NCBI GenBank assembly: GCA_964471945.1
Contig: CAYYIJ010000001.1
Span: 48,168 to 112,167 of the forward strand
Length of the DNA stretch: 64,000 bases
Source of the DNA: an uncultured Chlorobiaceae bacterium
Lineage (GTDB): Bacteria > Bacteroidota > Ignavibacteria > UBA10030 > SZUA-254
Direction: 5' to 3'
Positions 5,516 through 60,126 of this stretch are shown in pieces. Under the pieces are notes generated by a model. That model saw nothing but the letters and a program-made list of their open reading frames with translations, made no database searches and was not told the DNA's origin. Position 1 is the first letter of the stretch. The number at the start of each line of letters is the position of its first letter. Position numbers and translations under genes: made by a program.

Positions 5516-6360
5516 TCAATTTAAAGGTATAGAAATCTTGTTGACCGCATTATGAAGCTCACTCGCTGCAAGATGAGAATAAACCTCAGTAACCTTCACA
5601 CTGGAATGCCCAAGAAGCTTCTGCACCTCATAAATGCTCACCCCATCCTGTACAAGCCAGCTTGCAAAAGTATGTCTCAAGCTGTGAAAGTGGAGTTTAT
5701 CGTTTAATCCTGCAACGCTTACATACTCTTTAAATTTATGAGTAACAAAACCCTCTTTGACCTTAACATCGCTAAGCGGTAGTGTTCGCCTTTTGCCCTG
5801 TTTTGTCTTAAACGTTGGATTGCTCTTAACCTGAATTAGCTTTCGCTGCAAATCAACATCCTGCCAGCGTAAGTTGATAATTTCTCCACGCCTCATTCCT
5901 GTCAATACTGCAAATATTACTATTTCCTTAAGCCAGTTTTCTTTGATAATCAAAATGAGTTTTTGAAAGTCTTCTTTGGTGAAAAATGCAGGAGGCAATT
6001 CAGGTGTGTGTACAAGCTGTACGTTGCTGAACGGATTGCTTTCAATATGCCGTGGAGTAATATCAGTGAGAAGGCAATCTCCTGCGACCGTGTGAAGGTG
6101 TCTCAATCCAATTACAAAAATATCTACTGTTGGCTTTGCATAGGTTGCCCTTGCGTAAGAAAGATACTCTTGTGTGAGTTGTGTAAGGGTTTTTGTTTTT
6201 GGCTTCGACTATCATAACGCCTTGAACTCTGTCAGCTTTTTCAGCGCTTCATACTTGAGAGAACATTTTGAGGATTTCCAGCGCTTCTTACCTTGTTCAT
6301 CAGAATAACCAATATAATAAATGCTATTACGCTTCCAGAGGTAAAACTTTGGTGAGAGAA
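5516..6360 (-). pseudogene. Tyrosine recombinase/integrase, apparently frameshifted and N-terminally degraded.
   Basis: Catalytic C-terminal domain is in one frame (LRHTFASWLVQDGVSIYEVQKLLGHSSVKVTEVYSHL; R..HxxR..Y). It is extendable only to an ATG at 6212-6214. A short arm-binding-like N-terminal segment (KFYLWKRNSIYYIGYSDEQGKKRWKSSKCSLKYEALKKL) lies in a different frame at ~6210-6360, with no ATG, and ends in a stop that overlaps the other frame. Confidence 0.55.
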
Positions 6361-6373
6361 CCTATCTTTTTAG

Positions 6374-6448
6374 TCGGAACGGCGGGATTTGAACCCGCGA
6401 CCCCTTGCACCCCAAGCAAGTGCGCTAGCCGGGCTGCGCCACGTTCCG
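6374..6448 (-). tRNA. tRNA-Pro (anticodon GGG).
   Basis: 75-nt cloverleaf read on the minus strand: acceptor CGGAACG/CGTTCCG, anticodon stem CTTGC/GCAAG with loop TTGGGGT (G37), T-arm GCGGG-TTCAAAT-CCCGC, discriminator A, no encoded CCA. Confidence 0.85.
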
Positions 6449-7037: not shown

Positions 7038-7787
7038 ATGACAAAGAAAGAACTCAGACAGCTATTACAACAATACAAGCGTGGTAAGCTTAGCGATCAA
7101 CAAATAGTAGAGAAGATATCCTCACTAAAATTTGAATCACTTAGTTTTGCTACAATAGATCATCATCGTCAACTTAGACAGGGATTCCCGGAGGTTATTT
7201 TGTGTCAAGGTAAAACACCCGATCAAGTTGCTGAGATCGCCTCGAGGATTCATAAACGTTCACAGCCACTATTAGCAACTCGCGCAACACCTGATCATTA
7301 TAAAGCGGTGAAAAAGGAAATCCGTCAGAGCCATTACCATAAGTTTGCTCGTACAATTACAGCGAATGAACCAAAAAAGCAGTTACTGAACCGTGGAACA
7401 ATTCTCGTAATCACGGCTGGAACATCCGACATTCCAGTGGCTGAGGAAGCTTTTATTACTTCTCAAATGCTCGGCAATCCAGTTGAAAGATTATATGATG
7501 TTGGAGTTGCTGGTATTCACCGCTTGCTATCCCAAAGCGAAAAACTTATGAAAGCAAGCGTAATAATTGTAGTTGCAGGAATGGAGGGTGCCCTTCCAAG
7601 TGTGGTTGGTGGTTTAGTGGATGTACCAGTTATTGCTGTTCCAACTTCAATCGGTTATGGTGCAAGTTTTCAAGGTGTCGCAGCGTTGCTCGGGATGTTG
7701 AACACGTGTGCAAGCGGTGTTACTGTTGTGAATATTGATAATGGATTTGGGGCTGGGTTTGCAGCAAGTTTGATGAACAAAAGATAG
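7038..7787 (+). CDS. larB: LarB-like (PurE-related) nickel-pincer nucleotide biosynthesis carboxylase/hydrolase.
   Basis: Diagnostic IDHHRQLRQGFPEVI motif plus a PurE-like core VVAGMEGALPSVVGGL..PVIAVPTSIGYG. The likely start is the internal Met (MTKKELRQLL), not the ORF-track start at 6969. Confidence 0.8.
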   Translation: MTKKELRQLLQQYKRGKLSDQQIVEKISSLKFESLSFATIDHHRQLRQGFPEVILCQGKTPDQVAEIASRIHKRSQPLLATRATPDHYKAVKKEIRQSHYHKFARTITANEPKKQLLNRGTILVITAGTSDIPVAEEAFITSQMLGNPVERLYDVGVAGIHRLLSQSEKLMKASVIIVVAGMEGALPSVVGGLVDVPVIAVPTSIGYGASFQGVAALLGMLNTCASGVTVVNIDNGFGAGFAASLMNKR

Positions 7788-8960: not shown

Positions 8961-9085
8961 TTTGGTTGCTAATAACATTTATTTTATTTAAATTATATCC
9001 AGCTTATTAATAATCATCTTTTCTTGCGTTTATCATACAGGTGAAATATCGGAGCACTTTATCTTTCTTGGAGTAAAATTGTAAT

Positions 9086-10907: not shown

Positions 10908-11292
10908 ACCAATAATTGCAGTTGAGTACTACTTACTTATAACACCAAAGTATAAGGAACGTGATAAAAAAGTGGTAACTTATTTCACACTAAGGACTGT
11001 ACCAGAGTTTACATATTTTAGATATGAGATTATTGTTAAACCCGTTATTCAGGATCGTACAATACGATTCGACATTCATGGGTTACGAGCACCACTAGTT
11101 ACAATCCCAAACATGGGTCCGGCTACATTTACCGCTGAATTTGAAAATTTATCTGGTGATTACACACTGATTGTTTCTAAGCATGGTAAAAAGGTAAATA
11201 GATTTTTACTGAAAATAAAAAAAAATAAGATCATCGTAGAAAAAAGTCCGGAGAATAAATTTATTGAGATCGTCACGGACGAGACAAAATAG
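10885..11292 (+). CDS. Hypothetical small Lys-rich protein.
   Basis: ORF overlapping the hisS 3' end. No ATG is available until late in the frame; the start is uncertain (TTG at 10885 proposed). No recognisable domain. Confidence 0.3.
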   Translation: MKRGESVKPIIAVEYYLLITPKYKERDKKVVTYFTLRTVPEFTYFRYEIIVKPVIQDRTIRFDIHGLRAPLVTIPNMGPATFTAEFENLSGDYTLIVSKHGKKVNRFLLKIKKNKIIVEKSPENKFIEIVTDETK

Positions 11293-18654: not shown

Positions 18655-18725
18655 TACTCTGCGTTCTCAGCGTCTCTGCGGTGAAAGAATTTCTCGCAAA
18701 GATCGCAAAGGTCGCAAAGAAATAA
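18655..18725. repeat. Short intergenic repeat of the cgcaaag-triplet family.
   Basis: gcgttctcagcgtctctgcg...ctcgcaaagatcgcaaaggtcgcaaag. Related to the elements at 26482-26658, 38690-38770 and 58551-58655. Confidence 0.6.
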
Positions 18726-20526: not shown

Positions 20527-21822
20527 GTGACTAAAATGCTTATAGAATTTACAGTTGAAAATTTCAGATCAATTAAGGGAAGACAAACCTTATCACTGCT
20601 CTCGTCTGGTAAAGTTAGTGAACATCCAGAAAATTTAATTATTACTAAAGATAACCTCAGGGTAAATAAATCTACAATTATTTATGGGCGTAATGCATCA
20701 GGTAAAACTAATTTCTTGATGGCGATGAAAGCACTCGAATTTCTAGTAAGAAGGTCTGTTCATTTTAAAATAGATCAAGAGATACAACCATATGAACCGT
20801 TTAAGCTAGATAAAAACTCAAGTGACAAACCGATCAGTTTGGAAATCGATTTTATCGCAAAAGATAATGTTAGGTACAAATACTCGGTATCATTTTCAAA
20901 ATCTGAAATAATTCATGAATCGTTATTTTATTATCCGAAGGGTCAACCTGCTAAGCTGTTTATGAGGGAAAACAAAAAACCTATTATTTTTGGTACGTCA
21001 ATAAAAGGTGATAGACGCAGTGTTGAGAAACAATTATTGAGTAATCAACTTTTTCTATCCAAGGGAGCAAACAGTAACATTGAACAACTAAAAATACCTT
21101 ATCTTTTTTTTAATAAATACATTTTTGCAAGAATTTATAGTGATTTTGATTTTGATGATTCTCTTATCAATAGTTATACAAGAGCTATTGCAGAAAAAAA
21201 AGATACAAAGTTAAAAGAAAATCTTGATAAGTTGATAAGGATTGCTGATACAGGTATCTCATCTATTATAGTTAATGAAGTAGCGGTTGATAAAATAAAA
21301 TTCCCGGACGGTTTATCGGAGGATGCTAAAAGGCGAATAATAGATAGAAATAAGTATGAGATAAAAACAATTCATAAAATCTATAATGAAGGCATTACAT
21401 CAGGTGAAATCACTTTTGACTTACATGATGAATCAATGGGCACAATAAAATTATTAGCAGTAGGTGGAATGATTCTCGATGCTTTAAGTGATGGTACTGT
21501 TTTAATCATCGATGAATTAGATAAAAGTTTACACCCATTGTTAACCCGTGTACTAATAAAGTTATTCCATAACTCCATAACTAATCCCAACAATGCACAG
21601 CTAATATTTGCGACTCACGATGTCTCCCTTATGGATAAGGAGTTATTTAGACGAGATCAAATCTGGTTTACCGAGAAGGAAATTGATGGGGCTACGAAGC
21701 TATATTCGCTATCAGATATAAAAGGAGTTCGGAAAGAATATTCATATGAAAAATGGTATCTGAGTGGGAGATTCGGTGGTACACCGGTTATCAACGAACA
21801 CGAGTTGATATCTAGTTTTTAA
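20527..21822 (+). CDS. AAA_21/ABC-type ATPase, AbiLi-like (OLD-family-like ATPase without a nuclease domain).
   Basis: Walker A GRNASGKTN, Walker B LIIDELDKSLHP, H-loop IFATHD. Lower GC than flanking genes. Confidence 0.8.
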   Translation: MTKMLIEFTVENFRSIKGRQTLSLLSSGKVSEHPENLIITKDNLRVNKSTIIYGRNASGKTNFLMAMKALEFLVRRSVHFKIDQEIQPYEPFKLDKNSSDKPISLEIDFIAKDNVRYKYSVSFSKSEIIHESLFYYPKGQPAKLFMRENKKPIIFGTSIKGDRRSVEKQLLSNQLFLSKGANSNIEQLKIPYLFFNKYIFARIYSDFDFDDSLINSYTRAIAEKKDTKLKENLDKLIRIADTGISSIIVNEVAVDKIKFPDGLSEDAKRRIIDRNKYEIKTIHKIYNEGITSGEITFDLHDESMGTIKLLAVGGMILDALSDGTVLIIDELDKSLHPLLTRVLIKLFHNSITNPNNAQLIFATHDVSLMDKELFRRDQIWFTEKEIDGATKLYSLSDIKGVRKEYSYEKWYLSGRFGGTPVINEHELISSF

Positions 21823-21823
21823 T

Positions 21824-22441
21824 ATGGCTAATCGACTCAGACAAAATAAAATTCTACCCCTTAGAAAAAGGGGACTGATTCTATGTGAAGGAAAAACAGA
21901 AATAAGTTACTTCAATGGATTGAAACATGACGAGATGGTTAGAAGGCGTCTTTCTGCAATAGATATTTACATCGGTCAGCCCTCAAATTACTCACCACTA
22001 GGTCTTGTGAAAGAGGCTAAGGAGAGAAAAAAACAAGCTATAAGGGAAAAGAATCACTATGATTTTGTGTGGTTGGTGTTTGATAGGAATGGTCATGATA
22101 AAGTACCAGAAGCATTCAATATGGCACATTCAAATAAAATTAAAATTGCTTTTTCGGTTAGGTGTTTTGAGTTTTGGTTCTTATTACATTTCACTCAATC
22201 GCTAAAACCATATACGAAATGCGATGAATTAATTCATGAATTGAAAAAGAAATATCATCGTTATGATGGCTCTATCAATCACTATGAAGAATTGAAAGCT
22301 CAAACCTTGACTGCAATAAGTAATGGTGCCTGGGTAATCAAGCAAAATCAAAATGATATAGACAGGGGTACACCTTTGTACGATTTAAATGCTTATACTG
22401 ACGTACATCTACTCGTGGAGTATTTACTTAATTTGTCATAA
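21824..22441 (+). CDS. RloB-family protein, AbiLii-like partner.
   Basis: N-terminal LILCEGKTEISYF matches the RloB signature (ILIVCEGEKTEPNYF). Starts 2 bp after the ATPase stop. Confidence 0.7.
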   Translation: MANRLRQNKILPLRKRGLILCEGKTEISYFNGLKHDEMVRRRLSAIDIYIGQPSNYSPLGLVKEAKERKKQAIREKNHYDFVWLVFDRNGHDKVPEAFNMAHSNKIKIAFSVRCFEFWFLLHFTQSLKPYTKCDELIHELKKKYHRYDGSINHYEELKAQTLTAISNGAWVIKQNQNDIDRGTPLYDLNAYTDVHLLVEYLLNLS

Positions 22442-22532
22442 ATAAATTTGATATAAAACGGTTCATCTGTGGACCTCGAATCTGAAATACTCAAAGAGCA
22501 TTCTAAGAGGCAGGTGTTATAGGAATGTGAAT

Positions 22533-22562
22533 AAAAAAAGTCGGCTATTAACCGACTTTTGA
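22533..22562. terminator. Bidirectional rho-independent terminator between convergent genes.
   Basis: aaaaaagtcggctattaaccgacttttg: 8-bp perfect stem flanked by an A-run and a T-run. Confidence 0.6.
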
Positions 22563-22595
22563 ATGTTATTGTGATATTAAAAGTTCAAGAAATCT

Positions 22596-26062: not shown

Positions 26063-26095
26063 AAATAAAAAAAGTCGGTTGATAACCGACTTTTA
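26063..26095 (-). terminator. Rho-independent terminator.
   Basis: aaaaaaagtcggttgataaccgacttttaa, nearly identical stem to the terminator at 22533-22562. Lies downstream of the minus-strand sod remnant. Confidence 0.6.
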
Positions 26096-26121
26096 ACTCT
26101 TAAATAAGAGAAGATGTCTTT

Positions 26122-26424
26122 TTATTTACCAATTACCAACTTTTTATAGCGTTCGTTGATTCGTCCCCAATGTAGATTTGCCATGAAATTGTCGATGTAA
26201 GCTGCACGCTTTGCACCATCCTTATGATAGTATGCATGCTCGAATACATCGAGTGCAATCATTGGGATACCACCCCAGATCGCGCCATACTGGTGTTCAT
26301 CGACGAGGATATTTAGCAACCGACCAGACCATAATCTATCTACCACGAGAAGTCCCCATCCGCTTAACTTAGCTGAGATTGCAGTTGCTTTAAAATCTTC
26401 CTTCCATCTTTGAAGCATCGTCAT
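26122..26424 (-). pseudogene. sodA: Fe/Mn superoxide dismutase, C-terminal domain only (N-terminal half absent).
   Basis: 100 aa matching SOD residues ~100-200 (GSGWGLLVV...ALDVFEHAYY...NW). An in-frame stop lies 2 codons upstream of the Met. No N-terminal SOD sequence in any frame in the ~45 bp before the adjacent MITE-like element. Confidence 0.65.
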
Positions 26425-26481
26425 ACCTCAGTTAAATAAAAGCTCACTTATTGTTTCCGAATAGCTGATCATCATTGAGTA

Positions 26482-26658
26482 ACTGATGTTACGCAAGAAT
26501 ATGGTTTATCACAAAAGTTTCGCGTGTCTTTGCGTCCTCTGCGACTCTGCGTTTAACCAAAATGCTAAATTGCTCTTGGAAATGAAGAGGAACCGCAAAG
26601 ACGCTAAGAACGCAAAGGTTCGCAAAGATGATTATTTAGTTCTGTGCGTAACATCAGT
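26482..26658. repeat. MITE-like element, 177 bp, with 14-bp terminal inverted repeats and a 5-bp target-site duplication.
   Basis: TIRs actgatgttacgca / tgcgtaacatcagt. Flanked on both sides by the direct repeat GAGTA (26477-26481 and 26659-26663). Interior carries a cgcaaag triplet. The right end overlaps the acrB-like stop codon. Confidence 0.7.
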
Positions 26659-29600
26659 GAGTAACCTTTCTTTCCTCTGATAAATACGTGTACATCGCTG
26701 GTATTACATACAATGTCAGTACACCGGAAAATATCAAACCACCGATAACGGCGATACCCATCGAGACGCGGCTCTCGGAACCGGCACCAAGTCCTAATGC
26801 AATTGGCAAGATACCGAATATCGTTGATAGACTCGTCATTAGTATGGGGCGGAAACGTGCGACGGCAGAACTTTTCACTGCATCCACAATGGATAGACCT
26901 TTCGCCTTTCGCTGGTTAGCAAATTCTACTATCAGAATTCCGTTCTTAGTTACAAGTCCGATGAGCATAATCATACCTATCTGACTGAAGATATTTATAG
27001 TTTGACTGAAATACCAGAGTGTAAATAAAGCGCCTGCAATTGCGAGCGGTACAGTGAACATGATGATGAGTGGATCTCGGAAACTCTCAAACTGAGCGGC
27101 AAGGATCAAGTATGTAAGCGTGAGCGCTAAAAGAAATACAAAAATCAAACTCGACGAGCTTTCTGAAAAGTCCCGCGCGGCACCGGCGAGAGAAGTTGCA
27201 AACGATTCATCCAATACTTTATTAGCAATCTCATCCATGGCGTTAATTCCATCGCCAAGTGAATAGCCCGGCGACAGACCTGCAGAGATTGTAGCAGATT
27301 TATAACGGTTGAATCGGTACAGTTGAGGCGGATTTGCTTGTTCGGAAATGGCAACTAAGTTATCAAGTTGTATAAGCTCGCCGTTACGACTTCGCACAAA
27401 TATTGATTTTAAATCCATCGGCTCATCGCGATTTTCACGCGTAAGCTGTCCGATTACTTGATACTGCTTCCCATCTTTAATAAAGTAACCATATCGCTGT
27501 CCGCCTAATGTTAGTTGCAATGTTTGAGCAACATCGCTGATAGAAACACCGAGTGCGCGAATTCGATCTCGGTTTATTGATATTACCAACTCAGGTTTAT
27601 TAAATTTCAAATTTATATCGGATACACCAAACGCTGGATGATTATTGACTTCGTCAATGAAGCGAGGTAGTATATCTTGCAATTTTATTAGATTAGGCGC
27701 TTGAAGTACATATTGCACTGGCAATCCGAAACGCGCCATGCCTGTACCGACACTGATAGTTTGTTCTTGAGTAACGATTGTTCGTGCGTCGTTCATCTGA
27801 CGCACCCTGCGGGATAAATCCTCAGCAATATCATTCTGTGTTCGGTCACGATCAACAGGTGAATTTAATGTTATAGTCATAGAACCTGCATTTGCGCCGC
27901 CGGCAAATCCTGAAGTGTTTGCCATGACATTCCTTACTTCCGGAACTCTTTGTCTAATCACATCGATTAAACTATTCATGTAATTATCCATTCTTTCAAA
28001 CGAGGTACCTTCAGGAGCGGTAGAACTGATACGCAGTCGACTTCGGTCTTCTAAAGGTGCAAGCTCTTTTTGAATTACGATAATAAAAAGCGATAGCATT
28101 CCTGCCGATAAAAGAATTACTATAAATGCCAGCCAACGGCGCTGTAAGAAGGAATTCAAAGAGTTACGGTATAAATCAATTAATTTGTTGAAAAACGGTT
28201 CGGTCTTATTATAAAACCAGTTATGTTTACTATGAGGCTTTATGATTCGTGAGCTCAGCATAGCTGTAAGTGTTAGTGCAACAAATGCCGAAATCGCAAC
28301 AGAGCCGCCTATCACGATACCGAATTCTTTGAAAAGGCGACCTGTGAACCCTTGCAAAAAGACAATAGGCATAAAGACTGCAATGAGAGTCATTGTTGTA
28401 GAGAGTACGGCGAAGAAGACTTCCTTTGAACCTTTCAGTCCCGCCTCAATCGGGTCCATTCCTTGTTCAATCTTGGCGTAAATATTTTCCAGTACGACAA
28501 TGGCATCATCTACGACAATGCCAATTGCTAATATCAAACCCAATAAAGTTAGAATATTAATAGAAAAATCTGCAAGATACATTATGAAAAATGTTCCGAC
28601 TAAGGACAGAGGAATTGCAAATACAGGAATTAGAGTTGTTCTCCAAGCACGGAAAAAAAGAAAAATGATCAATACGACAAGTATAAATGCAATAATGATA
28701 GTCTCTTTGACCTCTTCAAGAGATGCACGAATGTATTCTGTGGTATCGAAGCCTTTGGCAAGCTCAATGTCTTCGGGTAAATCTTTCTTGATTAGTTCTA
28801 CGCGGCGGAAAAATTCGTTAGCTATAGCAATGTGATTCGACCCGGGCTGTGGTACGATTGCAATGGCAACTCGTGGTCCCGATAATCCTTTAGTTGCCGA
28901 CCGCTCGTTTTCCGGACCAAGCTCAGCAGATCCTATATCTCGAAATCGAATTATCTGTCCGTTATGCTCACGGATTATTAGGTTGTTGAATTGTTCAGGA
29001 GTCTCGAGCCGGCTGAGTGTTCTTACTGTAAGCTCGACATCGTTTCCTTCAATTCGACCGGCAGGCAGCTCAAGGTTTTCTGCATTCAACGCACTGCGAA
29101 CATCTAAAGGTGTTAGCTGATAGGCGGCGAGTTTCGCTTGATTCAGCCACAAACGCATTGAATAGCGTTTCTCTCCAAAAATCCTTACTTCACTTACTCC
29201 CGGAATAGTTTGCAGACGTTCCTTAAATGTACGGTCAGCAATATCACTTAATTGTAATAGGTTCCTGGTGTTGCTGCCTATGCTCAATATAACTATCGGA
29301 CTTGCGTCGGCATCGGCTTTTGAGACGACTGGGGGATCAACATCGGGTGGCAAATTGCGGGCGGCGCCTGCTACTTTATCTCGCACATCGTTTGCGGCTG
29401 TTTCGAGATCAACCGCTAAGTCGAATTCGATTGTGATTGAGCTTCGACCGTCTCGACTTGTAGAGTTGATTGTGCGAATTCCCGGTACACCACTTATTGC
29501 ATCTTCAAGACGCTCTGTAATCTGCGATTCGATTACATCTGCATTCGCACCCGTATATGCTGTATTAACGGTTATTATTGCAGGGTCAACATTTGGATAT

Positions 29601-29707
29601 TCGCGTACCCCAAGGAAAGTATAACCTATTACTCCGAATAAAATAATAATAAGAGACATTACAATCGTCAGCACGGGGCGCCTAATACATACAGCAGATA
29701 AACTCAA
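26654..29707 (-). CDS. RND-family efflux transporter permease (AcrB/CzcA-like).
   Basis: 1017 aa. 12-TM RND architecture with two large periplasmic loops; typical N-terminus RRPVLTIVMSLIIILFG. Confidence 0.9.
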   Translation of the reverse strand: MSLSAVCIRRPVLTIVMSLIIILFGVIGYTFLGVREYPNVDPAIITVNTAYTGANADVIESQITERLEDAISGVPGIRTINSTSRDGRSSITIEFDLAVDLETAANDVRDKVAGAARNLPPDVDPPVVSKADADASPIVILSIGSNTRNLLQLSDIADRTFKERLQTIPGVSEVRIFGEKRYSMRLWLNQAKLAAYQLTPLDVRSALNAENLELPAGRIEGNDVELTVRTLSRLETPEQFNNLIIREHNGQIIRFRDIGSAELGPENERSATKGLSGPRVAIAIVPQPGSNHIAIANEFFRRVELIKKDLPEDIELAKGFDTTEYIRASLEEVKETIIIAFILVVLIIFLFFRAWRTTLIPVFAIPLSLVGTFFIMYLADFSINILTLLGLILAIGIVVDDAIVVLENIYAKIEQGMDPIEAGLKGSKEVFFAVLSTTMTLIAVFMPIVFLQGFTGRLFKEFGIVIGGSVAISAFVALTLTAMLSSRIIKPHSKHNWFYNKTEPFFNKLIDLYRNSLNSFLQRRWLAFIVILLSAGMLSLFIIVIQKELAPLEDRSRLRISSTAPEGTSFERMDNYMNSLIDVIRQRVPEVRNVMANTSGFAGGANAGSMTITLNSPVDRDRTQNDIAEDLSRRVRQMNDARTIVTQEQTISVGTGMARFGLPVQYVLQAPNLIKLQDILPRFIDEVNNHPAFGVSDINLKFNKPELVISINRDRIRALGVSISDVAQTLQLTLGGQRYGYFIKDGKQYQVIGQLTRENRDEPMDLKSIFVRSRNGELIQLDNLVAISEQANPPQLYRFNRYKSATISAGLSPGYSLGDGINAMDEIANKVLDESFATSLAGAARDFSESSSSLIFVFLLALTLTYLILAAQFESFRDPLIIMFTVPLAIAGALFTLWYFSQTINIFSQIGMIMLIGLVTKNGILIVEFANQRKAKGLSIVDAVKSSAVARFRPILMTSLSTIFGILPIALGLGAGSESRVSMGIAVIGGLIFSGVLTLYVIPAMYTYLSEERKVTH

Positions 29708-38640: not shown

Positions 38641-38806
38641 ACTAGAGACATCTGAAATATTGTTTCTCGTGCCAAAGGCATCATTTCGTGACAAAGATGC
38701 AAAGATCACTAAGGTTTGATGTTTGAACACAACATTTTCTTTGCGACCTTAGCGAGCTTTGCGAGATGTATTGTTTTGAATTTTTCAGAAGTATCTAATA
38801 TTTAAT
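38641..38806. repeat. MITE-like intergenic element with imperfect terminal inverted repeats (tagagacWtctgaaa). Encloses a reverse-oriented cgcaaag-family unit.
   Basis: Left end tagagacatctgaaatatt, right end tttcagaagtatctaatatt. Interior is tttgcgaccttagcgagctttgcgag (rc of the cgcaaag triplet core). Confidence 0.55.
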
Positions 38807-39121
38807 TCTTTTCCTGTTGCTTTGGGAAATAATTCAATCACAAGAATTTTCTTAATGCGATTTGTAAATTTCGCAGCAGCTCAACTTCCATCGCACCCAA
38901 CAGAGAAAAGGTCTCTTCTAAAAAGTTTACCGTTTCTTACACTTTATCCAATTTAACACTTTTTATTGAATTTTTCGGGATTATGGTGGTGGCTGACAAG
39001 TCGCCGTCATAGATTATCGTAAGCCCCGATTACTCGGGATACCCGCTTACATTATACTCCAGGATCAATGTTGTTTGGTCTTTTTGATTTCGGGAAGATT
39101 CTTTCTATATTTAACATAATT

Positions 39122-39799: not shown

Positions 39800-39985
39800 G
39801 ATGAGTCATTCCGTCCCGACTGTGTCGGGATCGAAATCTAAGCTATTAGAGACTTCTGAAATATTATAAAACCATACCCGTCATTCCGAACGCGGGCAGG
39901 TGTTTCGGAATCTAAGCGATTTTAGACCCTGAAATGAATTCAGGGTGACCCTTTGGGTGATTTTTCAGAAGTCTCTATTATAGAT
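39800..39985. repeat. Composite hairpin-repeat region: two gtcattccg...aatctaagc units and a 138-bp element bounded by perfect 15-bp inverted repeats tagagacttctgaaa.
   Basis: gtcattccgtcccgactgtgtcgggatcgaaatctaagc and gtcattccgaacgcgggcaggtgtttcggaatctaagcg. TIRs at 39848-39862 and 39968-39982. Internal palindrome accctgaaatgaattcagggt. Confidence 0.55.
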
Positions 39986-41067: not shown

Positions 41068-41670
41068 ATGGAAACAACACAATTAAACATCGGTAATTCA
41101 GTACCAAATTTTATAATCGAAACCTTTGACCCCGTAAAAAACGATTTCACTGAAATATCACTCGAGTCGATAAAGAAGAAAAAGAAGTGGACAGTATTAT
41201 TTTTCTATCCTGGCGACTTCACTTTCGTATGTCCAACCGAGTTAGCTGACTTGGGGACAGTCCATAACGAATTGAAAGAACACGGCGTTGAAATCATTTC
41301 AGTCAGTACCGATACAAAATACACGCACCTTGGATGGAATCAAGCTGAGATGCTTCTGAAAAATGTAAAATATCAGATGGGTTCTGATCCGACCGGAAAA
41401 ATATCGAGGTTATTCGGTGTTTATGATGAACAAACCGGTATGGCATTTCGGGGAACATTCATCATTAGTCCTGATGGAATCTTGATTGGCTCAGAGATCA
41501 ATTATTACAATGTCGGCAGAAATGCTGATGAGCTGCTTCGGAAAATAAAAGCAAATGTTTATCTATGTTCGCATCCGAATGAAGCTTGTCCTGCGAAATG
41601 GGAAGAAGGTGATAAAACACTCAAGCCTGGTGCACGGCTTGTCGGGAAAGTATATCAAGCTTTAAAGTAA
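41068..41670 (+). CDS. Typical 2-Cys peroxiredoxin (AhpC/Tsa-like).
   Basis: FFYPGDFTFVCPTE peroxidatic Cys and C-terminal resolving-Cys region CPAKWEEGDKTLKP. RBS aaggagaa lies upstream of the ATG at 41068. Confidence 0.85.
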   Translation: METTQLNIGNSVPNFIIETFDPVKNDFTEISLESIKKKKKWTVLFFYPGDFTFVCPTELADLGTVHNELKEHGVEIISVSTDTKYTHLGWNQAEMLLKNVKYQMGSDPTGKISRLFGVYDEQTGMAFRGTFIISPDGILIGSEINYYNVGRNADELLRKIKANVYLCSHPNEACPAKWEEGDKTLKPGARLVGKVYQALK

Positions 41671-58382: not shown

Positions 58383-58550
58383 GGTTATGTCCTAATTCGA
58401 ATATTATAAATTGTTTTGGAAATCGTTTAGAAGCATTGTATGAATTTTCGATAAAAAATCCAAATAAATGCAAAACCTGGATAAATCGAAAAACTATATT
58501 GACAACCATCACGGATAAATTGTGCAATGATTCATAATTTATATATGTTA

Positions 58551-58655
58551 ACCAAAATGCTAAATTGCTCTTGGAAATGAAGAGGAACCGCAAAGTCGCT
58601 AAGAACGCTAAGGTTCGCAAAGATGATTATTTAGTTCTGTGTGTAACATCAGTAT
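58551..58655. repeat. Truncated second copy of the cgcaaag-triplet MITE-like element.
   Basis: ~105 bp, >95% identical to 26553-26658, including the right TIR tgtgtaacatcagt. The left ~75 bp of the full element are absent. Confidence 0.7.
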
Positions 58656-58837
58656 GTTAAGTACTTCTTATGGATTACTAAATAATTTGTTTGATGGTGG
58701 TAAAATTCGTATAATCACACAAGCATTTAATCTCTCGTTGATATATGTTTCTATAATAGGATAGATTTTTATTTTTAAGATAATGAGATATATTAAGTTG
58801 AAACCTCTGAAAAACTTTTTTCATCATTATGTCATTC

Positions 58838-58900
58838 TGAACGCCCGCCTGCCAAAGTCGGCAATGGTGGACGGCGGGCAGGAAGTGAAGAATCTTTCTC
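58838..58900. repeat. gtcattcYgaacgc hairpin-type repeat unit.
   Basis: gtcattctgaacgcccgcctgcc...ggcgggcagg, related to the units at 39803 and 39879. It was translated as the false N-terminal extension of ORF 58783. Confidence 0.45.
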
Positions 58901-58935
58901 GTTTTTGCAAGACAAGATGTTTCGCTCCGCTCAAC

Positions 58936-60126
58936 ATGACAACTAATTATGAATTTTTCAGAGGTTTCAAGTTATTTGTAATATTATTTTTTTTGTTGTT
59001 GTTAGTCGAGGATACTGGACATTCCCAGATCGTTCAGGATTCTTCTCTCTCGGTAATCCTTGAACGTGCGTATTCTCTTTTGGATAGCAATCCTAACGAG
59101 GCGGAACGTTTGTTTGAAAGTGCTATATCAATCGAACCGATGAATGTTGATTATCGGAGACAACTCGGATATATATATAACTCACTTCAAAAATATGATC
59201 TTGCTTTGCAACAATTTTACTTTGCTGAAAGTCTATACCCATCAGACACAATAAAATTGCAGATTGCTTATACATATTTACTTGTTGACCAAAAAGAAAA
59301 AGCCGAGAAAATTTTAGAAGAACTCGAATCAAGTTCATCCCAAGATATTAAAATAAAAGCTCGAGAGGAGTTAAAAGTAATCCAAGAGAGGCAATCCAAT
59401 TGGTGGACGCGTATTTACACCGCAGCATTTTATGATACCCGGTGGGAGACATCATTTTTACAAGCTGAAATGCAGCGTGGATACTTCCTGACCGATGATA
59501 AAATCCTTAGCGGTTTTGGTTTCATCATGCTATCTGGTGATGCACGTTCACGTGGTGGTCTTACGCCTATGATTATATCTGATAATTCTCTAATACTTGG
59601 ATTAGGGATTAATATTAAACCACTTGAAGGATTTCAAATTAATATACAAGATGGTTTAGCTTTTGATTTAATCGCTGAAGGCACTTTATTAAAACCAAAA
59701 AATGATTTTCGGACAGTTGCAATTTATTCGTACGGAATTTATCCTACGTTTACATACAACTCTAAATTTAAAACTCCATATACACCGTTTGCCGATATCT
59801 ATTCATCCGTTGGATATTATTCACGTTACCAGAACAGTATCGGGTATCTTCAGGGAAGATTGGGACTTCGCATGATAGAAGTGTCGTACACTGCTGTTGA
59901 TATTTTTTCGAAGGGCAATTTAGTTCGCGACACCGAAAAAGAATTTTACAATAATCTAGTCGAAGGTGGAATTGGAATTCAAATTATACCCCATATCGAA
60001 TGGGGAGTTTATTTATCGGCGGAATATGATGTTGGTCAGTATTTAAATTATTTCGGTAGTCCTAATCCATATAAACGTTATTACAGTATGTGTAGATATT
60101 TTCTAATATTTGAACGTTCCTTCTGA
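58936..60126 (+). CDS. Exported TPR-repeat protein, possibly an outer-membrane TPR/beta-barrel partner of the downstream synthase.
   Basis: Signal peptide begins at the internal Met (MTTNYEFFRGFKLFVILFFLLLL). N-terminal TPR-like repeats and a C-terminal aromatic-rich beta region ending in F. Confidence 0.45.
   Translation: MTTNYEFFRGFKLFVILFFLLLLVEDTGHSQIVQDSSLSVILERAYSLLDSNPNEAERLFESAISIEPMNVDYRRQLGYIYNSLQKYDLALQQFYFAESLYPSDTIKLQIAYTYLLVDQKEKAEKILEELESSSSQDIKIKAREELKVIQERQSNWWTRIYTAAFYDTRWETSFLQAEMQRGYFLTDDKILSGFGFIMLSGDARSRGGLTPMIISDNSLILGLGINIKPLEGFQINIQDGLAFDLIAEGTLLKPKNDFRTVAIYSYGIYPTFTYNSKFKTPYTPFADIYSSVGYYSRYQNSIGYLQGRLGLRMIEVSYTAVDIFSKGNLVRDTEKEFYNNLVEGGIGIQIIPHIEWGVYLSAEYDVGQYLNYFGSPNPYKRYYSMCRYFLIFERSF

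Follow-up and report, generated by a model that had tools for sequence, protein, structure and literature searches.

A probable miniature inverted-repeat transposable element with IS701/ISAba11-type ends at the last codon of an acrB-like gene in an uncultured Chlorobiaceae bacterium

The element and its insertion site

The DNA analysed here is a 64,000-nucleotide stretch of an uncultured Chlorobiaceae bacterium (assembly GCA_964471945.1, contig CAYYIJ010000001.1, positions 48,168 to 112,167; denoted the window), and all positions given without a contig name refer to it. Within the window, an intact gene on the minus strand (26654-29707) encodes an AcrB-like RND efflux permease of 1017 amino acids, which matches a homolog of 1018 amino acids along its entire length with 95% identity. 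Downstream of its stop codon lies a minus-strand open reading frame (ORF) of 100 amino acids (26122-26424), a remnant of a gene for Fe/Mn superoxide dismutase (sod) that retains the C-terminal domain only. Between the two is an element of 177 bp (26482-26658), which an original prediction from the letters of the sequence had described as non-autonomous and MITE-like (MITE, a transposable element of the miniature inverted-repeat type), with 14-bp terminal inverted repeats and a GAGTA target duplication.

The ends of the element are as predicted. The left terminal inverted repeat, ACTGATGTTACGCA (26482-26495, plus strand), and the right one, TGCGTAACATCAGT (26645-26658, minus strand), are complementary at 14 of 14 positions when read from the sequence, and the direct repeat GAGTA sits immediately outside both (26477-26481 and 26659-26663). 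On each side the full form is T-GAGTA-A, giving two target copies TGAGTAA at 26476-26482 and 26658-26664, so that the region reads ...catcatTGAGTAA up to the left boundary, CTGATGTTACGCA, 149 nt, TGCGTAACATCAG up to the right boundary, and TGAGTAAcc. For the final A of the left target copy, assignment to the inverted repeat, as its first base, is equally valid. Because this outermost A/T pair is assignable to either the repeat or the target, a 14-bp repeat with a 5-bp duplication is equivalent to a 13-bp repeat with a 7-bp TGAGTAA duplication.

The interior (26496-26644) is non-coding and forms an imperfect long palindrome, with core arms at 26519-26554 and 26591-26626 built of CTTTGCG/CTCTGCG and CGCAAAG units spaced by about 9 nt. 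Folded as a whole, the element forms a nearly full-length hairpin; the minus strand gives -69.2 kcal/mol (z -8.5) and the plus strand -62.4 kcal/mol (z -6.3). The element has no Rfam match, either in a local search (E<=1) or window-wide at the gathering score. Its sole ORF, of 64 amino acids, reads through the hairpin and no transposase is encoded, in agreement with the predicted non-autonomous state.

To place these features against chance, we simulated 200 windows with a first-order Markov model of the 64-kb window. A simulated window contained on average 0.7 perfect inverted repeats of 13 nt with a spacing of 20-400 nt, and such an inverted repeat together with a flanking direct repeat of at least 5 bp was found in none of the 200. 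The 14-mer itself, with up to two mismatches, is present four times in the window against 0.38 expected. A chance origin of the pattern of repeat and duplication is excluded. At the level of sequence, the element has the features by which a MITE is recognised: terminal inverted repeats at both ends, a target duplication, small size and no transposase gene.

The right end of the element overlaps the stop codon of the acrB-like gene, as had been noticed: the TGA (26654-26656) lies within the right repeat (cTGAtg). When the element and one target copy are removed, the end of the gene reads ...aag gtt act caa tga (KVTQ, stop), and in the presence of the element this becomes ...act cac tga (KVTH, stop). 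The insertion is thus in the last acrB codon, one base before the original stop. Because the element's own repeat gives a stop at the same position, the pump protein is unchanged but for its last residue. The empty site reconstructed in this way, a prediction, reads ...AAAGGTTACTCAATGATGATCAG... on the minus strand. DNA homology of the window with relatives carrying acrB ends near 26675, and therefore a linker of about 95 bp separates the end of acrB from the sod fragment, with the MITE inside this linker. The element is predicted to add a very stable hairpin to the acrB 3' untranslated region, between acrB and the pre-existing sod remnant.

Downstream of acrB, two relatives (contigs L126, 11035-11120, and L127, 4690-4770) carry a short ORF remnant reading ...SALDYQTPNEFL..., which we take to resemble the C-terminus of IS3-family transposases. 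The sequences suggest that the acrB 3' flank is a recurrent site of rearrangement.

Copies in the window

A search of the window with the element (BLASTN) detected a second copy on the plus strand (58548-58653), truncated at its 5' side, 97% identical to 26553-26658 over 106 nt and ending in the right repeat TGTGTAACATCAGT. The string TATGTTAA stands on both sides of it (58544-58551 and 58653-58660). The structure of this copy fits a normal insertion that would have been followed by deletion from the left terminus to an internal TTAA. The 64 kb thus hold one full and one truncated copy, and a further copy, of the sort that the original prediction proposed to count, does exist.

An independent Logan contig of the same DNA (SRR11582140) terminates 49 nt inside the element, as may happen because assemblies tend to break at repeats; the element's repeat probably breaks assemblies, and this contig is one that stops there.

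Units of the same kind as those in the MITE core also occur outside the element. Stand-alone hairpins at 18657-18720 and 38690-38766, and at 1501-1533 of contig L137, are built of CTCTGCG/CGCAAAG units with a spacing of about 9 nt; the two in the window give the better fold on their minus strand (z -5.5 and -3.2), and a similar single arm of this type is present on a Calothrix plasmid. A second, MITE-like repeat family is found at 39845-39977 and 58795-58973, each member with TA on either side, like IS630/Tc1-type elements. The members end in the inverted repeats GAGACTTCTGAAA / TTTCAGAAGTCTC and AGTTGAAACCTCTGAAAAA / TTTTTCAGAGGTTTCAACT, their interiors hold gtcattc(c/t)gaacgc... motifs, and partial matches lie at 38771-38796, 38961-38984 and 41348-41370.

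Full-length insertion sequences with the same ends

The trail to a class of autonomous partners was a weak BLAST match between an element of Endozoicomonas, described below, and plasmid pCHL69-1 of Cyanobacterium sp. HL-69. On this plasmid, an element of 1,110 bp lies between exact ACTGATGTTACGCA repeats and carries a single gene, annotated 'group ISAba11 transposase'. The plasmid protein, on which the family assignment was made, reaches 343.8 bits with the NCBIfam model NF049921 (IS701 family transposase), whose cutoff is 250, and has Pfam matches to DDE_5 and DDE_Tnp_1. The left repeat of the window element matches the ends of IS701/ISAba11-group insertion sequences exactly. The full-length insertion sequences with the same terminal repeats that the original prediction proposed to look for are therefore available, on public plasmids of other organisms.

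Searching with the pCHL69-1 transposase (tblastn) yielded homologs on 211 plasmids. We examined six, and in all of them the gene lies in an element of 1.09-1.15 kb. The ends are CTGATGTTACGCA in Stanieria (transposase 70% identical to that of pCHL69-1), Polaromonas (54%), Thiothrix (54%) and Acinetobacter schindleri (51%), CTGAAGTTACGCA in Moraxella (48%) and CTCACCTTACGCA in Piscirickettsia (47%). Counting pCHL69-1, three of the seven plasmid copies have perfect flanking duplications, ATTTA, TATTT and TCATA, all in the T-N5-A frame like GAGTA. In a more distant member from Fulvitalea (Bacteroidota; 43% identity) the ends, CTGAnCTTTCGCT, have diverged. Metagenomes are rich in this transposase family, with 7,339 cluster representatives at E<=1e-30 among the candidates scored.

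ISAba11 has been placed in the IS701 family, and in Acinetobacter its insertions are linked to resistance to colistin and other drugs (PMC9771954). For ISAba11 insertions a 'characteristic 5 bp direct repeat' has been reported, with TATAG and ATTTA as the sequences (bioRxiv 10.1101/2020.10.08.331108). The window element shares with the group the 14-bp termini ACTGATGTTACGCA, found on the examined Cyanobacterium, Polaromonas and Acinetobacter plasmid members, and the 5-bp duplication of an AT-rich target; it differs in that the group members are about 1.1 kb long and carry a DDE transposase gene, which the 177-bp element lacks. IS982, IS4/IS10 and IS1595, considered as parents on the basis of their end sequences, were superseded by the IS701/ISAba11 elements.

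The same ends in other taxa

Scans with the right-end 20- and 21-mers returned only a Thiomargarita metagenome-assembled genome from the genome collection and no match from the metagenome collection. The Thiomargarita element, found with the 21-mer, is 72 bp long (CTGATGTTACGCA...TGCGTAACATCAG) and stands directly after carA. A further end lies at the start of a Thiomargarita contig (L002, 1-55; CAYFOB010000011.1, bases 43-55), which begins 42 nt inside an element that this end closes. Inward from this repeat we noticed AGGAG, 7 nt and an ATG (MLGT...), which may be the start of a full insertion-sequence gene cut by the assembly. A metagenome scan modelled on this arrangement, a terminal inverted repeat followed by a ribosome-binding site and ATG, gave six matches; five look like chance, and the sixth is a metagenome contig (L134) that carries the exact 13-mer end three times, each intergenic (7289-7301, 9068-9080 and 10955-10967), one of them abutting a hairpin like those of repetitive extragenic palindromic (REP) sequences. 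These may be solitary ends or remnants, and the genes around them we take to be a type I restriction-modification locus.

Nearly all matches of the 14-mer in viral contigs are chance occurrences in coding sequence (e.g. ...LRNISD...). The real elements in this set are two: a 94-bp element interrupting a gene of Endozoicomonas montiporae (L116), with TTAATAA on its flanks, and an element of about 216 bp present in two copies on a phage-like metagenome contig (L083). In one of the latter copies both ends have changed in a compensating manner (CTCACGTTACGCA / TGCGTAACGTGAG), and TTACTTTGA flanks it. A search of the viral contigs for paired ends with gaps of 30-210 nt found nothing further. The interiors of the Thiomargarita, Endozoicomonas and phage-like contig elements are unrelated to that of the window element, and the ends alone are held in common.

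The E. montiporae insertion can be compared with an empty site in a sister species, E. lisbonensis, where the orthologous gene encodes 180 amino acids, is uninterrupted and has one target copy. The empty site reads ...GTCTTC-TTACTGA-AAGAAG... and the filled site ...GTCTTC-TTATTAA, the element, TTATTAA-AAGAAG..., and therefore elements with these ends insert with target duplication.

Weighing the explanations

Together, the anatomy, the absence of the pattern from all 200 simulations, the further copy and the full insertion sequences with identical ends bear out the predicted footprint of a transposase-mediated insertion. We consider it highly probable that the 177-bp element is a non-autonomous MITE with IS701/ISAba11-type ends, moved by a transposase supplied in trans. 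The dependence on a transposase in trans follows because the element has no transposase gene and shares only terminal repeats with ISAba11-group elements. The transposase, from a full-length insertion sequence of about 1.1 kb that is, or was, present at another place in the genome, would bind both ACTGATGTTACGCA ends and either cut the element out or copy it. The element would then be joined to an AT-rich target (T-NNNNN-A) cut with a 5-bp stagger, and gap repair would produce the GAGTA duplication. We infer that a matching transposase is, or once was, present in this genome.

Several observations weigh against the MITE explanation. A Pfam scan of 20 window ORFs showed no transposase of the IS701/ISAba11 kind or any other, and the parent-type insertion sequences were found in other organisms only, the source genome lying outside the collections searched. 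An empty site for the insertion at 26482-26658 was not obtained, and the closest relatives (AcrB 90-95% identical) differ in the DNA downstream of acrB. Four of the seven plasmid insertion sequences have no duplication, the Thiomargarita element has none either, and the three solitary ends of the L134 contig have no partner. Finally, outside the 14-bp repeats nothing in the window element resembles the full-length insertion sequences, so that its probable descent from them is read from the ends and the duplication length.

The alternative that survives best, itself improbable, is that a full-length ISAba11-type element inserted beside acrB and lost its interior in situ, the 177-bp form never having moved. 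Such a deletion derivative would have ends and a duplication exactly as in full-length elements, which is what we see, and a single complete copy is visible in the 64 kb. However, the interior shows no similarity to any full-length element or transposase gene, and the same short interior is present at the second locus, 97% identical and with a flanking repeat of its own; therefore the short form itself has spread.

It is very improbable that the element is a structural hairpin, a terminator or RNA-stabilising stem-loop at the acrB 3' end, whose repeat is local and whose flanking repeat is a coincidence. In favour of it are the high stability of the fold, greatest for the transcribed minus strand as the values given above show, and a position directly after the stop codon. 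Yet the stem is not followed by a T-run, no intrinsic terminator on the element was called in the terminator scan, and the flanking direct repeat never arose in the simulations. Moreover, the same 14-mer bounds mobile elements in other phyla as well as full insertion sequences, and the filled and empty Endozoicomonas sites contradict a purely structural origin.

Equally little probability attaches to a REP or REPIN sequence moved by a RAYT (an IS200/IS605-like tyrosine transposase), or to an integron attC-like site acted on by a tyrosine recombinase. The element is indeed an imperfect palindrome, a truncated phage-integrase-family ORF lies at 5516-6106, and a literature string search showed that the core GATGTTACGCA is identical over 11 nt to the DR2 IntI1-binding site of attI1. 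But neither class duplicates its target, and duplications are present both here and in the Endozoicomonas pair, and the ends are those of an insertion sequence with a DDE transposase. The consensus of attC is RYYYAAC...GTTRRRY; in the window element the box order is reversed, GTTACGC...GCGTAAC, and there is no cassette array. We judge the 11-nt likeness to attI1 coincidental, the resemblance to attI1 and attC being ruled out by box polarity, context and the target duplication. REP and REPIN sequences are ruled out likewise by the duplication, and no RAYT-like ORF is present among the 20 window ORFs scanned.

Two further candidates were rejected. A MITE of the IS630/Tc1-mariner type is ruled out by flanks that are T-GAGTA-A and not TA, and a link to the repeated TAACTGA heptamers known from Beggiatoaceae, cyanobacteria and Bacteroidetes (PMC4679880) by the heptamer count in the window, which shows no enrichment (seven found, ten expected).

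The sod remnant and its neighbourhood

The sod-like ORF was predicted to lie 55 bp to the left of the element and to keep only its C-terminal domain. It is indeed adjacent, at a distance of 57 nt from its start rather than 55, and of the two domains of a functional dismutase it has PF02777 (Sod_Fe_C) and not the N-terminal PF00081. Homology to full-length proteins starts at 26406-26415, about 60-75 bp from the element, and corresponds to about residue 76-83 of the homologs (partial records). These homologs are ordinary two-domain dismutases, and in relatives the gene follows the suf/isc iron-sulfur cluster genes. No intact sod gene is recoverable, because the N-terminal domain is absent from the whole 64-kb window (tblastn). 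The truncation is real and was not caused by the MITE: because both target repeats are intact, the MITE arrived after the rearrangement. Annotation should treat the ORF as a remnant and not as a functional dismutase.

A string resembling the terminal inverted repeat, TAACTGAGGT (26425-26434), lies at the sod breakpoint; as a scar of an older element it was rejected, for it has the wrong orientation and matches weakly. In two relatives with long contigs (L123, 5744-6378; L124, 5734-6360) sod is called as two ORFs, one for the N- and one for the C-terminal domain; these split calls are probably assembly frameshift errors and not real splits.

A good terminator follows the sod fragment on its 3' side (26094-26070). 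Direct repeats of 39 nt at 22530-22568 and 26064-26102, 85% identical and each a terminator-like hairpin (AAAAGTCGG...CCGACTTTT), bracket the sod remnant together with a gene for a protein of 1129 amino acids with a type IX secretion system (T9SS) tail. The repeat pair may mark a duplicated terminator or the boundary of a cassette. Just upstream of this variable region of T9SS gene, sod remnant and MITE, an AAA_21/AAA_15 ATPase gene is followed by an RloB-like gene (20527-22441), a pair typical of abortive-infection or OLD-like defence. The phage-integrase-family ORF mentioned above is short (196 amino acids) and adjoins a tRNA gene (6374-6448); the region 5516-6448 may be the edge of an integrated element.

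Comparison with known elements and significance

Among bacterial MITEs, the Correia elements of Neisseria, RUP of Streptococcus pneumoniae and MITEAba12 of Acinetobacter resemble the window element in being short and non-coding, with terminal inverted repeats, a target duplication, a hairpin and a site between genes or at a gene end. They differ from it in parent family and in duplication length: the duplicated target is TA for Correia and RUP, and 9 bp long for MITEAba12. The MITEs of Candidatus Thiomargarita nelsonii (Flood et al. 2016, PMC4853749) are alike in general architecture; those published from hupL and from a dsrA intron have other ends, a 19-bp inverted repeat accompanied by a direct repeat of 10 bp, and termini reading TATAG. 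The repeat strings of the window are absent from the supplementary sequences of that paper, and identity with the published Thiomargarita MITEs is not supported, as the ends differ. The literature searched contained no description of a MITE derived from the IS701/ISAba11 group, and after this search we regard the element as a further example of MITEs, not as a new kind of element. The general view of transposon biology is unchanged by it.

A broader idea, which we offer as unlikely though conceivable, is that ISAba11-group ends mark an unrecognised cross-phylum MITE family, comprising the elements of the Ignavibacteria-like bacterium studied here, Thiomargarita, Endozoicomonas and the phage-like contig, in which each lineage pairs the 14-bp ends with its own host-typical hairpin. 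As part of the same speculation, the copy at acrB might be kept because its minus-strand hairpin of -69 kcal/mol, in which G-U pairs favour the strand that is transcribed, gives the mRNA of the efflux pump stability or insulation.

The element provides a clean, dissected example of a MITE that very probably derives from the IS701/ISAba11 group, and the 14-mer is usable as an annotation probe for elements with ISAba11 ends. Conservation of the group's 13-14-bp ends extends over Cyanobacteria, Beta- and Gammaproteobacteria and the Ignavibacteria-like bacterium studied here.

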